From Armatimonadota bacterium (GTDB lineage Bacteria; Armatimonadota; UBA5829; DTJY01), in the NCBI GenBank assembly GCA_025358205.1, contig JANYKG010000119.1, positions 14,233 to 78,232 on the forward strand: DNA of 64,000 bases, written 5' to 3'. The notes beneath the pieces are model-generated. The model ran no database searches. It had not been told where the DNA came from and saw only the letters and a program-made list of their open reading frames with translations. A program made the translations under genes and the position numbers. Below are positions 11,727-46,420 of the stretch, piece by piece. Within the stretch, counting starts at the first letter, position 1. Each line of letters opens with the position of its first letter.

Positions 11727-11756
11727 TAGCACAAATTATAGTCCCGTGCCTGAGGG
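11727..11756 (-). promoter_or_regulatory. sigma70-type promoter, TTGACA-N18-TATAAT (minus strand)
   Basis: Read directly: minus strand shows cTGTTTGACAccccctcaggcacgggacTATAATttgtg, about 40 nt upstream of the 11690 start. Confidence 0.5.
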
Positions 11757-11856
11757 GGTGTCAAACAGTTGGCTGGTTTGTCGCGGAGAATACGGATAAA
11801 GGTAATCCAAACTTGCTGAGCCGTATATTTCAGAGACATTCATGTGATATGCAATA

Positions 11857-14295
11857 TCAGATCTGGCGTTCTTCTTCCTCGCGAGCGCGTTTGATTTCCT
11901 CATACTTTGCCCGCACGCTCTTGGCATTCGGCAGGAGTTCGAGCGCCTTCAGGCAGGAGCGCTCCGCTTCATCCCGTCTCCCCAAGGAGTGGTAGCAGCC
12001 AGCTAGATGCGAATGAGCCCAGCCATCGTTGGGGTCTTCTCGGACGGACAGTTCACCATATCTAAGCGCATAGTCCATTTTGCCCAGATTGGCCATTTCG
12101 CGAGACCGACTGCAGTAGTAGCTGGATCTCTCGTCGGCTTCTGCCATTCGCTCTGCTGCCATTCTGTCGAGTCTGTACATCTCATCCCAATTCCCCTGCT
12201 CCCGCTCAATAGTCGCCAATGACGCCGGGAAATTCAGCTCCTGCGGGTTCTGTTCTGCACCCTTGCGCAGTATCCACTTGGCGGTATATGGCGCAGGATC
12301 TTCCGTGTCGCCGATATTACCCTCATTTTCTTCCATAGATGCCCACTTGAACCACGTCTGGAAGTCGATTCGGCCAGTCTTGATCGCCGTCCGCAGTAGC
12401 CATCTAGCAGTGTACTCGGCGGGGCATTCCCTATCTCCGATGTTGCCCTGCTCCCTCTCAAAGAACGCCCAAACTTCCCAATAGGGCACCTCTGGTTTGG
12501 CAGCAGTGAGTCCGATTCTGAATACTGTACGAGCGCCATCGACATCGCCACGACCACCCAGGAACCGCGCATACCCCGAGATATCTGAGGCATCCCAAGC
12601 AAAACGTTTGACTACGCGCAGTAGAACCTGAATGTCGTACCTGCAAGCCCGGGTCAGCAGATCTGATCCCAGCTCCAAGTCGGGCCAGCGATGAACATTG
12701 GGTAGCAGTTTCTCAGAACCTGTCATCGCCCATACCAACTGCTCAGCCAATGCTTCATCTGATTGGTCCATTTCAGCAATTATCCGCTCATACCAGCCGA
12801 ACTCTCCCCCCGCTTCATGTTCGAAGATGACGTTAGCGACAACGGGATGACGAGTTATCACATTATCATCAGCGAAGGTCAACTCAACAAGACCATGTGT
12901 TTTGGAGAGAACTTGGTCTTCTATGAAGATATGCTCTCCGATCAGGCGGCTAAGAAGGGATCTTGGCATTCGGAGGTCGAAGCGGTGAAGTGCGCTGACG
13001 TAGGTACAGGCCTTGCGAACAACATCACCATTGGCGGAACGGAGCTTTCGGAGTTCATCGACCACATGCTGATCGAATCCTTGTCCACCCTTTGCCTCAA
13101 TCAAGGCGACGAGGAGTTGTCTGTTCGCACGCATGGAAAGCTGGTAAACCTGCTGGTCTCTGCTTAGTCCGGCGAGTTTCCCAAGGCTCGTGGGCATGCG
13201 GCATTCGTTTTCAGAGAGCTTGTCGAGGAGTGCTTCGATGTCGGTCGGGCTCATATGGCCGAGATCGATCTTCCTAAGATCGGCGTACGAGCCTACGTTC
13301 AGTTTCAGTCCGTCCCATAGGGAGGTAATCGCTGCCGAAACCACGATGGGCCGGATCGGGAAGTCCCTCAACCGCTCCAAAAATCCGCTGACCGCGTCAG
13401 GACCGAATAGCATGATGCTGTCGACGAAGATGTAGACCAGCGAGTCCTTCGGGAGGTGGTCGAACTGCTCGGCAGAAAGGTCATTCCTGCCGGGTTTGTG
13501 CCAGAAAACCTCGTTGCGCCCGGAGCGGACCAACTCGGCGGCGACTCGACGCAAGACGGTGGACTTCCCCTCGCCGCTCAGCCCGGCGAGCACCGCGAAT
13601 GAGACTAGTGCTCCATTGCACTTCTCAGCCTCGATCACGAAGTCCCACAGCTCGCCGATGATCTCCCGCCGGGCGTCGAGGTTGTCGTGGATGTCCTTCC
13701 AGTCGGCGACCGCACCGTTATAGAACTCGCTCTCGGTCTTCGTAGGCAGCTTGTCCTCGCTCAGTCGCTCGCTCACGAGGTCGAAGTCGGTCAAGAGGTC
13801 GAGCACCTCCCGCTCGATCCGCTGGTTGTTCGGCAGGAGGAAGTTTGCATTGAGAAGCGACTTGTTCTCGGGCTTCAGCAGAAGGTTCATGATTGCGGGG
13901 GCGTCAAACAGCTCGATGATGAGCCCGGAGTATTTCTCCCGCAGGCCCCCGAGCCACCTGTGGTCGTCAAGTGAGAATTCGAAGGGAACGCAAAGAGTCC
14001 AAATATCCGGATCTTGGGTCTCAATCACGCGTTCTAATGATTTGATGGCCTGTTCCTTCTGACTCCTACCAAGGCCCGTGGGAAAGTGCTTCACCTGCCA
14101 GACGAGTAGCTTTTCATCCGTGCGCTCCTGCTTTGGGGTATCGAGCGGCCCCCTGAAGATGTCAACTCCTTCATCACCGCCCTTGCCTTCGACAGGGACT
14201 ATGAAGACGTCGCCAGCCTTGAGGAGTTGGCCGCAGAGTTCCTCGAAGCGCTTTGGGCTAAACAGCTTGAGTTGATCGTGAAGAGAGTACGGCAT
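11857..14295 (-). CDS. STAND-like P-loop NTPase with N-terminal Mrr-like PD-(D/E)xK nuclease domain and C-terminal TPR-like repeats (Avs-like candidate defence protein)
   Basis: 812 aa. N-terminus FEELCGQLLKAGDVFIVPVEGKGGDEGVDIF...LLVWQVKHF matches the Mrr_cat pattern (FEDLV...GDGGIDL...QCKRW). Walker A GLSGEGKST; Walker B-like LVYIFVDS. C-terminal repeat of about 41 aa (EREQGNIGDRE / EENEGNIGDTE). The gene is real with high confidence; the function is inferred. Confidence 0.6.
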   Translation of the reverse strand: MPYSLHDQLKLFSPKRFEELCGQLLKAGDVFIVPVEGKGGDEGVDIFRGPLDTPKQERTDEKLLVWQVKHFPTGLGRSQKEQAIKSLERVIETQDPDIWTLCVPFEFSLDDHRWLGGLREKYSGLIIELFDAPAIMNLLLKPENKSLLNANFLLPNNQRIEREVLDLLTDFDLVSERLSEDKLPTKTESEFYNGAVADWKDIHDNLDARREIIGELWDFVIEAEKCNGALVSFAVLAGLSGEGKSTVLRRVAAELVRSGRNEVFWHKPGRNDLSAEQFDHLPKDSLVYIFVDSIMLFGPDAVSGFLERLRDFPIRPIVVSAAITSLWDGLKLNVGSYADLRKIDLGHMSPTDIEALLDKLSENECRMPTSLGKLAGLSRDQQVYQLSMRANRQLLVALIEAKGGQGFDQHVVDELRKLRSANGDVVRKACTYVSALHRFDLRMPRSLLSRLIGEHIFIEDQVLSKTHGLVELTFADDNVITRHPVVANVIFEHEAGGEFGWYERIIAEMDQSDEALAEQLVWAMTGSEKLLPNVHRWPDLELGSDLLTRACRYDIQVLLRVVKRFAWDASDISGYARFLGGRGDVDGARTVFRIGLTAAKPEVPYWEVWAFFEREQGNIGDRECPAEYTARWLLRTAIKTGRIDFQTWFKWASMEENEGNIGDTEDPAPYTAKWILRKGAEQNPQELNFPASLATIEREQGNWDEMYRLDRMAAERMAEADERSSYYCSRSREMANLGKMDYALRYGELSVREDPNDGWAHSHLAGCYHSLGRRDEAERSCLKALELLPNAKSVRAKYEEIKRAREEEERQI

Positions 14296-14481
14296 TTGGA
14301 ATCACCTTGGCAACGCTGTAAGATGGATTGCCTGCTCGCGATAAGTGTATCACTTGGTCCGCCAGCGGTCAACGGCCATCGGGATCGTACTTTTCAGACC
14401 AATCTCCCATATGTTCCTGTAGACCCCCGGCCTCCGAAACGGGTATACTGTGAATGATGGTCCGACCTGCCGATAATCGTA

Positions 14482-45490: not shown

Positions 45491-46420
45491 ATGCCTGTTC
45501 CCGATTTCCAGCAGTTCTTCAGACCCATTCTGATTCTGATGAGCGATGGTGTTCCTCGCACTGCAGACGATGTCGAACAGGTGCTCGTAACGCAGTTCAA
45601 GATAGCCCCAGAAGACCAGGATGAATTGCTGCCGAAGGTCAACCGGACTCGGCTTCGCAGCAATGTGCTCTGGGCGCTTACCTATCTCAAACAGGCAGGC
45701 CTGTTGCTAGCGCCTAAGCGTGGGGTCACCCAAATTACCTCCCGCGGCACTGATTATGCTAAGCGGGCTCCGAACCCTTTGAAGATACCAGCTTTGACCG
45801 AGTTTCCGGAATTCGTCGAGTTCCAGAGAAGATCCAAACCTACTAAGAAACCATCTGAACCCAAACAGAAACTGCTACTGGACGACATCGTTAATGCTGA
45901 AACGCCCGAGGAACGGATAAGTTCGGCCCACTTGGAACACAACGCCGCACTCGCGCAAGAAGTACTGAGTAGTGTTAAGAGCATGTCTCCGGCATTCTTT
46001 GAGCAACTGATCGTAGACCTGATGCTGAGACTAGGATACGGGGGCGCTGGGGCGGAGTCCGGCCAGACACTTGGTAAGTCGGGCGATGGTGGCGTAGATG
46101 GTGTCATAAGCCAGGACAAACTTGGGCTTGAGAAAATCTACCTTCAGGCTAAGCGGTGGACTGACGTGAAGGTGGGAAGCAAGGACGTGCAGGCGTTCGT
46201 AGGTGCGCTGACCGGGCAAGGTGCGCTAAAGGGAGTATTCATCACGACTTCCGCGTTCACCAAAGAGGCGACCCAATACGTCAAGAATATCCCAAACATC
46301 AAGCTGTCTCTGATAGATGGTCTTCAACTTGCTGACCTTATGATAGAATATGACCTTGGAGTTGCCGTCGTGGCGCGCTACGATGTCAAGCGTGTGGATT
46401 CCGATTTCTTCGGCGACTGA
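45491..46420 (+). CDS. mrr: Mrr-type modification-dependent restriction endonuclease (Mrr_N winged helix plus Mrr_cat)
   Basis: FEQLIVDLMLRLGY...GKSGDGGVDGVI...YLQAKRW catalytic signature and N-terminal wHTH. Confidence 0.85.
   Translation: MPVPDFQQFFRPILILMSDGVPRTADDVEQVLVTQFKIAPEDQDELLPKVNRTRLRSNVLWALTYLKQAGLLLAPKRGVTQITSRGTDYAKRAPNPLKIPALTEFPEFVEFQRRSKPTKKPSEPKQKLLLDDIVNAETPEERISSAHLEHNAALAQEVLSSVKSMSPAFFEQLIVDLMLRLGYGGAGAESGQTLGKSGDGGVDGVISQDKLGLEKIYLQAKRWTDVKVGSKDVQAFVGALTGQGALKGVFITTSAFTKEATQYVKNIPNIKLSLIDGLQLADLMIEYDLGVAVVARYDVKRVDSDFFGD

Follow-up and report, generated by a model that had tools for sequence, protein, structure and literature searches.

A solitary Armatimonadota gene encodes a candidate Avs-like STAND protein with a predicted Mrr-like nuclease and a HAT/TPR repeat sensor

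Introduction

Avs proteins oligomerize upon binding a phage protein, and their effector domains are needed for the cell death that follows (PMC13581612). Avs3 and Avs4 are activated when they bind a phage portal or terminase protein, after which they oligomerize (PMC13581612). EfAvs5 binds ATP without hydrolyzing it (PMC11897194), and KpAvs8 carries degenerate Walker motifs (PMC13581612). Here, we describe a gene at positions 11857 to 14295 (minus strand) of a 64,000-nucleotide stretch of DNA, hereafter the window, from an Armatimonadota bacterium (assembly GCA_025358205.1, contig JANYKG010000119.1, positions 14,233 to 78,232). In our reading, to which we give a probability of about 0.7, the product of this gene is a bacterial NLR-like protein, an antiviral STAND of Avs-like type that stands alone.

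The described repertoire of such proteins is large. A recent survey (Lee et al. 2026; PMC13581612) counts 589 prokaryotic STAND clades, nSTAND included, along with 684 sensor clusters and 90 or more families. Clades were assigned to the Avs class there by enrichment beside known defense systems or by a defense-type effector, and a limit of 400 amino acids (aa) was used for defining Avs sensor clusters. An earlier note on this DNA had proposed that the 812-aa product joins a nuclease, an NTPase, and a repeat region and that it could be a compact, undescribed Avs-like variant. The three-part composition of the protein, the conservation of its residues, and its structural neighbors, together with the effector swapping, rarity, and variable genomic context of its relatives and the lack of a partner gene, are set out below.

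Results

Domain architecture

The gene is an intact open reading frame (ORF) with an ATG start and is present in the ORF list of the window. Its coding sequence is complete by full-length alignment with seven relatives, and all full-length relatives share the start MP(Y/F)SL, which reads MPYSL in the window protein. The exact 812-aa protein is also recorded in NCBI and Logan. Three parts of the protein each exceed the curated Pfam cut-off, namely Mrr_cat, nSTAND_NTPase5, and TPR_2, which bears out the nuclease, NTPase, and repeat regions proposed in the earlier note; the motifs cited there (GKGGDEGVD, WQVK, GLSGEGKST, and YIFVDS) were all located where it had placed them. The Avs-like logic that it saw in this arrangement also holds under profile searches, family conservation, and structure prediction with fold search, and the architecture of an Avs protein (effector, STAND NTPase, and C-terminal predicted sensor in one polypeptide) is what we find. 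The description as an undescribed variant has to be given up, since the NTPase is already the curated Pfam family PF25199 (nSTAND_NTPase5) and the 2026 survey of STAND proteins exists (PMC13581612).

The STAND NTPase module spans residues ~189 to 497, including a helical domain and a winged helix. Positions 1 to 132 of the 145-position nSTAND_NTPase5 profile match aa 189 to 322 with a score of 73.7 bits (cut-off, 34; E = 1.8e-20). The nucleotide-binding domain (aa 189 to 345; 13261 to 13731, on the minus strand like all features of the protein given below) is modeled with a predicted local distance difference test score (pLDDT) of 85 to 94 and includes the pre-P-loop signature FYNG..DW.DI...DA.R, of which W199, D207, and R210 are invariant in the subfamily. 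The Walker A motif GLSGEGKST (aa 238 to 246; 13558 to 13584) contains G243 and K244, again invariant in the subfamily, and its G..GK pattern is invariant in 54 wider nSTAND5 relatives. In the Walker B motif YIFVDS (aa 288 to 293; 13417 to 13434), D292 is invariant and is followed by S, K, R, or N; an acidic DD pair at this site occurs only in the two most distant relatives (P0033 and P0040). The sensor-1 position is occupied by Arg in about half of the family and by T324 in the window protein. The helical and winged-helix domain (aa 350 to 497; 12805 to 13248) is modeled as helices over residues 350 to 437 and a helix-helix-strand-strand-helix unit at 445 to 495. It contains R482-H483 (12847 to 12852), a pair that is kept in every subfamily sequence covering the site and is invariant in the 54 wider relatives. 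In the model, these residues appear to correspond to the position of the STAND signature histidine and would contact the nucleotide.

STAND proteins were reportedly defined by Leipe et al. 2004 through a P-loop domain with Walker A and B motifs, a helical and winged-helix region with a conserved histidine, closer similarity to other STANDs than to other AAA+/ASCE ATPases, and C-terminal superstructure-forming repeats. We found all four features in the window protein, with the caveat that its subfamily lacks the second acidic residue after Walker B. An AlphaFold model of aa 1 to 520, built from 22 sequences, has a pLDDT of 86.5 and a predicted template modeling score (pTM) of 0.65, and the full-length model has a pLDDT of 75 and a pTM of 0.41. 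When the shorter model was compared to the PDB with Foldseek, EfAvs5 (2.6e-11) and Avs4 (1e-8) were matched, with SAMD9, MalT, NLRP2, NRC3, and CED-4 further down; the full-length model matched EfAvs5 (3.7e-10), SAMD9, Avs4, and Avs3 among TPR proteins. Thus, by the kind of fold comparison that the earlier note had called for, the nearest solved structures are EfAvs5, SAMD9, the AVAST5 filament, and Avs4, all ahead of generic AAA+ ATPases. Human SAMD9 (PDB 9ZJR) is a much larger, multidomain protein with other effector and sensor domains, and the identity is 15%. A sequence search of the PDB with the N-terminal 520 aa returned chance P-loop matches only. We rejected assignment to a housekeeping ATPase family because the NTPase is a STAND by both Pfam and fold search.

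Avs5 (EfAvs5, PDB 9JAP; AVAST5 filament, PDB 9NC9) provides the best solved match to both the NTPase module and the whole protein. It has the same order of parts (N-terminal effector, nucleotide-binding domain, helical domain, winged helix, and short C-terminal helical sensor), and it is likewise a single gene. The solved Avs5 chains have 833 and 768 residues, compared with 812 here, which contradicts the earlier suggestion that the window protein falls well short of the described Avs families in length. Binding of ATP by EfAvs5 without hydrolysis also fits the degenerate Walker B of the window protein. There are also differences. The Avs5 effector is SIR2, an NADase, whereas that of the window protein is a predicted nuclease; the Avs5 NTPase is Pfam nSTAND3, whereas the window protein matches nSTAND_NTPase5 and neither nSTAND3 nor SIR2_2; EfAvs5 retains the TTR arginine, whereas the window protein has T324 at the corresponding strand end; and no significant sequence similarity links it to the solved Avs5 chains. 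Its effector (no SIR2_2) and NTPase family (no nSTAND3) therefore rule out that the protein is an Avs5.

Avs4 and Avs3 (EcAvs4, PDB 8DGF; SeAvs3, PDB 8DGC), as well as Avs2, likewise carry a STAND NTPase between an N-terminal nuclease and a TPR-like sensor. In the Foldseek ranking, Avs4 comes second, and the N-terminal part of the Avs2 model weakly matches the N-terminal domain of the window protein. These proteins have about 1,500 to 2,000 residues and large irregular sensors, whereas the sensor in the window protein is a short regular HAT/TPR array.

This predicted sensor is a C-terminal α-solenoid (aa 544 to 812; 11860 to 12666) of about seven helical hairpins, as indicated by helix pairs in the model and by HAT/TPR profile matches, and its pLDDT is 84 to 94 over aa 670 to 800. 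Pfam TPR matches fall at aa 722 to 810, with TPR_2 at aa 760 to 790 (28.6 bits; cut-off, 27). The earlier label of Sel1-like repeats had to be replaced by HAT/TPR, as no Sel1 family was among the Pfam matches at E ≤ 1. Unit-by-unit comparison identified three HAT-like repeats of 42 aa/126 nucleotides (nt) at aa 587 to 628, 629 to 670, and 671 to 712 (12160 to 12537); the period had previously been given as 41 aa/123 bp, and at the DNA level it is weak in the window gene. The three units are 21 to 38% identical in amino acids and 42 to 47% identical in nucleotides, whereas random in-frame pieces of the same gene are 27 ± 4% identical in nucleotides, with a maximum of 40%. Tandem Repeats Finder detected no repeat in the window gene, and a DNA-level repeat search of the gene gave a single 19-nt match at a spacing of 252. 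The repeat in the window gene is real but decayed. A search of the PDB with the family profile returned the HAT proteins Clf1, crooked-neck, and Prp6 together with TPR proteins, which swamped the whole-family search, and HAT Pfam families match relatives of the window protein. The family repeat consensus is YTARWLFRKA..DP....WQAWA.ME..QGNIG. Judged from these profiles, the array consists of HAT-like half-TPRs plus canonical TPRs.

In relatives, the array is less decayed. Copy number rises from about 3 repeats in the window protein to about 17 in a 1385-aa Armatimonadetes paralog (P0002), whose gene contains a DNA tandem repeat of 126 bp in about 6 copies, 78 to 83% identical (locus L002, 12326 to 13230). 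A Bryobacteraceae gene has 2.9 tandem copies of 120 bp at 94% identity (locus L006, 11732 to 12078), and the gene for P0020 has 2.6 tandem copies of 102 bp (locus L094, 12961 to 13231). This indicates that the HAT/TPR array was recently expanded in three relatives. Such tandem expansions mark the sensor as the fast-evolving part of the protein, as would be expected of a recognition domain, and we consider this expanding HAT-repeat sensor the most interesting feature of the family.

The state of the repeats and of the NTPase motifs raises the question of whether the window copy is a decaying or inactive relic, which may bind nucleotide and no longer signals. Its repeats are degenerate relative to those of relatives, a 16-aa insertion at aa 527 to 551 is modeled with low confidence, Walker B lacks a second acidic residue, and T324 takes the place of the Arg seen in about half of the family. 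Even so, we think a relic very improbable. The full-length ORF is uninterrupted and retains every invariant catalytic and P-loop residue; the Walker B feature is common to the whole subfamily and hence ancestral rather than a product of decay; and EfAvs5, which does not hydrolyze ATP, and KpAvs8, with its degenerate Walker motifs, represent families reported to be active in defense or triggered death. These two proteins show that weak or absent hydrolysis is compatible with function. Given Walker B without the second acidic residue and T324 at sensor-1, nucleotide probably serves the window protein as a cofactor or switch and is not quickly turned over.

The predicted effector is an Mrr-like PD-(D/E)xK domain at aa 1 to 152 (13840 to 14295), which is indicated by Pfam, PADLOC, the structural model, and conservation. 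Pfam Mrr_cat matches aa 12 to 108 with 23.2 bits against a cut-off of 21. Both the full-length model and that of aa 1 to 520 contain a helix (residues 14 to 28), three strands, a second helix (77 to 94), and a final strand (98 to 102), with a pLDDT of about 85 to 93; this is the α-β-β-β-α-β order of the PD-(D/E)xK core, in agreement with the nuclease fold proposed earlier. F17, E18, G40, D41, G43, D45, Q67, and K69 are invariant in the 22 sequences, which are 25 to 74% identical. Among them, D41 and D45 lie in the G-x-GGD-x-G-x-D motif (GKGGDEGVD, aa 37 to 45; 14161 to 14187) and are the predicted catalytic aspartates, and Q67 and K69 belong to W-Q-V-K (aa 66 to 69; 14089 to 14100), which corresponds to the (D/E/Q)-x-K nuclease motif. 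Thus, an Mrr_cat match, the E...D...(D/E/Q)xK residues, and the predicted core order are all present. The invariance of the catalytic, Walker A/B, and R482-H483 residues down to 25% identity implies that both the nuclease and the NTPase activities are under selection.

Among PADLOC models, the nuclease domain is matched by LmuA of Lamassu (PDLC03851; 1.2e-10, profile positions 29 to 168 of 343), the best profile match to this domain, and by positions 19 to 106 of the 1504-position Avs2 model (E = 3.3e-4). LmuA lacks a P-loop and a repeat sensor. We rejected Lamassu as an identity because only the nuclease matches LmuA and the SMC-like LmuB, which Lamassu requires, is absent from the window flanks and the loci checked. 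In the PADLOC check proposed in the earlier note, no Avs model matched the NTPase or the sensor; the matches were confined to the nuclease domain.

The window also encodes a genuine Mrr, a solitary Type IV restriction enzyme (45491 to 46420, plus strand) matched over its full length by PADLOC mREase_IV (2e-78). Its likeness to the N-terminal domain, on which the earlier comparison had drawn, stands at the motif level and hardly extends beyond it (BLASTP E = 0.065; hhalign, 38 columns at a probability of 40%). By sequence, the N-terminal nuclease is divergent and only distant kin of this Mrr. A bona fide Mrr has an N-terminal winged-helix DNA-binding domain and a C-terminal Mrr_cat domain in about 300 aa. 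In the STAND protein, the nuclease is N-terminal, the Mrr winged-helix N-terminal domain is lacking, and PADLOC mREase_IV gives no match, and we rejected a bona fide Mrr on these grounds.

Proteins of ~570 aa in Acidobacteriota share the N-terminal domain (33 to 36% identity over aa 4 to 155) and lack a P-loop, which implies that the nuclease acts as a mobile module. At five Acidobacteriota loci (L007, 9995 to 14254; L008; L010; L011; and L012), it is fused to an uncharacterized C-terminal region of ~430 aa, also without a P-loop. At L007, the gene for the nuclease-domain protein is followed by genes for a Type II methyltransferase (PADLOC, 1.9e-65) and a mad8-like ATPase, an arrangement that suggests an undescribed restriction-modification-like or defense module.

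These observations bear on an alternative in which the window protein would work as a Mrr-type (Type IV-like) restriction enzyme that depends on NTP and directly reads modified or foreign DNA, with the NTPase regulating cleavage and the repeats serving self-assembly only. Membership of the N-terminal domain in Mrr_cat, its occurrence in the P-loop-less Acidobacteriota proteins, one of them beside the Type II methyltransferase, and the presence of a genuine Mrr elsewhere in the window are what this explanation would expect. It is nevertheless decidedly unlikely. The NTPase is a STAND switch with the winged-helix RH pair and neither a McrB-type GTPase nor a helicase motor; there is no recognizable DNA-binding or modification-reading domain, such as the winged-helix N-terminal domain of a true Mrr; and repeats that expand and contract quickly are more readily understood as parts of a diversifying protein sensor than as structural elements.

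Relatives and effector swapping

A word-indexed search of 5.8 billion proteins returned only eight full-length relatives of the window protein. With aa 1 to 520 as the query, a HMMER search of 1.84 billion cluster representatives (50% identity) found about 20 clusters matching over the whole nuclease and NTPase and several hundred more (458 at E < 1e-10) matching over the NTPase only, with N-terminal regions of varied length. The 54 NTPase-only relatives that we sampled all match PF25199 (54/54). SIR2 is the N-terminal domain in 28 of these 54, and others carry a Cap4-like endonuclease, TIR, HNH, or protease domain; TPR repeats are present in 31/54, about ten of which are HAT. Where the NTPase stays constant and the effector is exchanged in this manner, the 2026 survey counts STAND clades as defense-associated (PMC13581612). 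Members of the PF25199 clade, which include SIR2-, Cap4-nuclease-, TIR-, and metallophosphatase-nSTAND5-TPR proteins, share the W...D..R, Walker, and winged-helix RH motifs and frequent TPR/HAT C termini with the window protein. Most of those sampled have SIR2 and about 1,030 aa, whereas the Mrr-like version forms a small subfamily, the about 20 clusters mentioned above. The nSTAND5 relatives match PADLOC models via their effectors only.

The full-length relatives come from an Armatimonadetes metagenome-assembled genome (two paralogs in one closed genome), from Bryobacteraceae, and from a contig binned as Halobacteria. The two paralogs, of 743 aa and 1385 aa, lie 1.6 Mb apart on the 5.37-Mb chromosome of an uncultured Armatimonadetes (OY970325.1; loci L001 and L002) and differ mainly in repeat number. 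The relative in the Halobacteria archaeon bin is encoded on a 6,966-bp contig (CAZOEM010000135.1; locus L005) and is 39% identical to the window protein over query residues 1 to 806, with a masked stretch of the record falling within the gene; it reflects either cross-domain transfer or misbinning.

More distant SIR2-nSTAND5-TPR relatives are found between insertion sequence (IS) elements on conjugative Klebsiella plasmids. Matches were present on nine Klebsiella plasmids, and those listed are 25.6 to 25.8% identical to the query. The Klebsiella pneumoniae plasmid pKPC2_090249 (CP043374.1; locus L093, 5305 to 8439) encodes a 1044-aa SIR2-nSTAND5-TPR protein annotated as "SIR2 family protein," whose gene is flanked by ISNCY, IS3, and ISKra4 elements and lies near qnrS1. 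We rejected an assignment of these plasmid proteins to Avs5, as only their SIR2 domains match solved structures and PADLOC and the NTPase has no PADLOC match; the 1044-aa protein likewise shows no sequence similarity to the solved Avs5 chains.

The surroundings of the relatives differ from case to case. One of the OY970325.1 paralogs is beside a DUF4258/MqsA toxin-antitoxin pair, and the other is near genes for a 23S-rRNA-IVP protein and IS66 transposases; another relative is beside NikA, resolvase, and serine recombinase genes, and a further one adjoins an XRE regulator (HTH-XRE) and a SymE-like toxin. Still others are surrounded by ordinary metabolic genes. Toxin-antitoxin or mobile-element genes are thus near relatives in 4 of about 8 contexts, a small sample, and there is no recurring partner gene in the contexts examined.

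Such surroundings raise the possibility of a conflict or programmed-death module that follows the same logic with a trigger other than phage. The module might sense a plasmid or other mobile-element protein, serve mobile elements that carry it in addiction or exclusion, or guard a host factor. The relatives that lie in or beside mobile-element genes (IS66, NikA and serine recombinase, and toxin-antitoxin pairs) and the SIR2-nSTAND5 relatives between IS elements on Klebsiella plasmids point in that direction, and two sensors have been documented to depend on a host factor, namely Avs7 on EF-Tu and bNACHT25 on DnaJ (PMC13581612). The window copy and several others, however, are chromosomal and have no mobile-element genes nearby, and the characterized effector-STAND-TPR proteins in the cited papers are all antiphage. 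We therefore consider a nonphage trigger unlikely.

Genomic context

The nine flanking genes encode a GH-like hydrolase, a glycerate kinase, a KduI/IolB protein, a xylose-isomerase-like TIM barrel, an M10-like lipoprotein, an 89-aa protein without a Pfam match, a DUF6785 membrane protein, a 306-aa protein without a Pfam match, and a BNR protein. None of them matched a PADLOC model, so the statement in the earlier note that no other defense gene is nearby is correct for these nine genes (6.7 to 20 kb). The rest of the window contains isolated weak PADLOC matches only, plus the Mrr gene 31 kb away. In a pooled PADLOC scan of 36 ORFs outside 6.6 to 20 kb, single-member matches were obtained for mad2 (1.8e-26), LeoBC (1.5e-7), and LeoA (1.1e-6), which imply no complete system. 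G+C content at third codon positions (GC3) is 0.66 in the STAND gene versus about 0.73 for the real genes of the window; the Mrr gene has the lowest value among them (0.59), which suggests that it was horizontally acquired.

A consensus scan placed a putative promoter of the STAND gene (TTGACC-17 nt-TACACT, with TG before the second hexamer; 9/12 matches) at 14344 to 14372 on the minus strand, within a 186-bp divergent intergenic region. A predicted sigma-70 promoter (TTGACA-18 nt-TATAAT; 12/12 consensus) follows the STAND stop codon, ahead of the xylose-isomerase-like gene, at 11735 to 11764, also on the minus strand. Judged by these predictions, the STAND gene appears to be its own transcription unit. 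The program-made GTG start of the xylose-isomerase-like gene, at 11732, is probably too early, as homologs align from residue 10 to 15 and the public gene call of 307 aa fits the Met at residue 15 (around 11690).

Conservation of the locus was assessed through the flanking isomerase. The STAND gene is present at 0/80 metagenome loci with isomerase orthologs, and the closest of these loci (76% identity) also lack conservation of the other flank. The former observation implies that this is no core gene with fixed synteny, and the latter leaves a clean insertion unproven. The orthologs themselves are rare, and their context differs each time, so they do not behave as conserved core genes. A distant member (P0024, 979 aa; locus L097, 10001 to 14261) has an AP_endonuc_2 (xylose-isomerase-like) gene immediately next to it, together with a sugar-catabolism operon. 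This resemblance to the window is probably coincidental, as the neighboring gene there differs in type and lies on the other strand.

A housekeeping or regulatory role, as a MalT/AfsR-like STAND or an RNA-metabolism HAT scaffold co-transcribed with the downstream sugar-isomerase operon, has some points in its favor. The gene precedes the isomerase-KduI-glycerate kinase genes on the same strand by 124 bp, RNA-processing scaffolds are where HAT repeats are typically found, and MalT is among the Foldseek matches. We regard this explanation as extremely improbable. A MalT-type regulator was rejected since the protein has no DNA-binding output domain and, in its place, a nuclease with invariant catalytic residues. 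In addition, the family occurs extremely sparsely and in scattered phyla, none of the 80 loci with an orthologous isomerase contains it, and the isomerase operon has its own predicted 12/12 sigma-70 promoter between the two genes.

Discussion

We conclude that an Avs-like defense protein is the probable product of the STAND gene. As to the grounds on which the 2026 survey admits clades to the Avs class, a defense-type effector is present in the form of the Mrr-like, LmuA/Avs2-like nuclease, and defense neighbors are absent at the window locus. Several observations count against this reading. The window gene has sugar-catabolism, peptidase, and membrane-protein genes for neighbors and is in no defense island, and several relatives are likewise found among ordinary genes. 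GC3 of the gene is only mildly atypical, so it gives no convincing signal of foreign DNA or of recent acquisition; no match was found in phage genomes. The Avs1-5 models of PADLOC-DB v2 match the nuclease domain only, and neither the NTPase nor the sensor, and the profile of the N-terminal domain has no significant sequence match in the PDB. Depending on the boundary chosen for the NTPase, the sensor, at about 270 to 315 aa (about 315 aa beyond the winged helix), may lie below the 400-aa limit of the survey (PMC13581612), and a sensor this short makes "enveloping" recognition of a phage protein less certain. Lastly, as far as we found, the literature contains no experimental work on the subfamily or on the nSTAND5 clade.

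If the protein does act in defense, its mechanism would follow by analogy with Avs3, Avs4, Avs5, and Avs7, on which our expectations about its ligand, its oligomeric state, the activation of its nuclease, and its antiphage function are modeled. The resting monomer would be autoinhibited, with the P-loop domain and the winged-helix R482-H483 enclosing the nucleotide and with the C-terminal HAT/TPR solenoid folded back on the NTPase. An invader-derived ligand, most likely a phage protein, would bind the solenoid and release the NTPase module. The released protein would then oligomerize, either into a closed oligomer as in Avs3 and Avs4 or into a filament as in Avs5, and the N-terminal Mrr-like domains would thereby be brought together as active dimers that cut DNA indiscriminately and abort the infection.

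The subfamily might go further than this and constitute a distinct, uncharacterized Avs family of little-studied soil and sediment phyla (Armatimonadota and Acidobacteriota), with a short HAT sensor that diversifies by tandem expansion and contraction, although we hold this extension of the argument to be doubtful. If it were correct, repeat recombination would generate recognition specificity, unlike in the fixed irregular TPR-like sensors of characterized Avs proteins. Recombination-driven diversification of repeats has been proposed for fungal and animal NLRs. The sensor might also detect a class of ligand that has so far been linked to no Avs, conceivably a protein bound to nucleic acid, given the presence of HAT repeats in scaffolds for RNA processing.

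The picture of STAND-based defense is left unchanged by this locus, as the architecture, the NTPase family, and the logic have already been described; the candidate is well supported but unsurprising, and its subfamily is rare. If it is functional, a nuclease-armed nSTAND5 branch would join the Avs repertoire, and it would do so from phyla whose immunity has hardly been studied by experiment. With its 812 aa, the protein would be a compact single-gene system that is convenient for mechanistic work, and the recent expansions of HAT-like repeats in its relatives suggest a tractable model of how a repeat sensor changes specificity.

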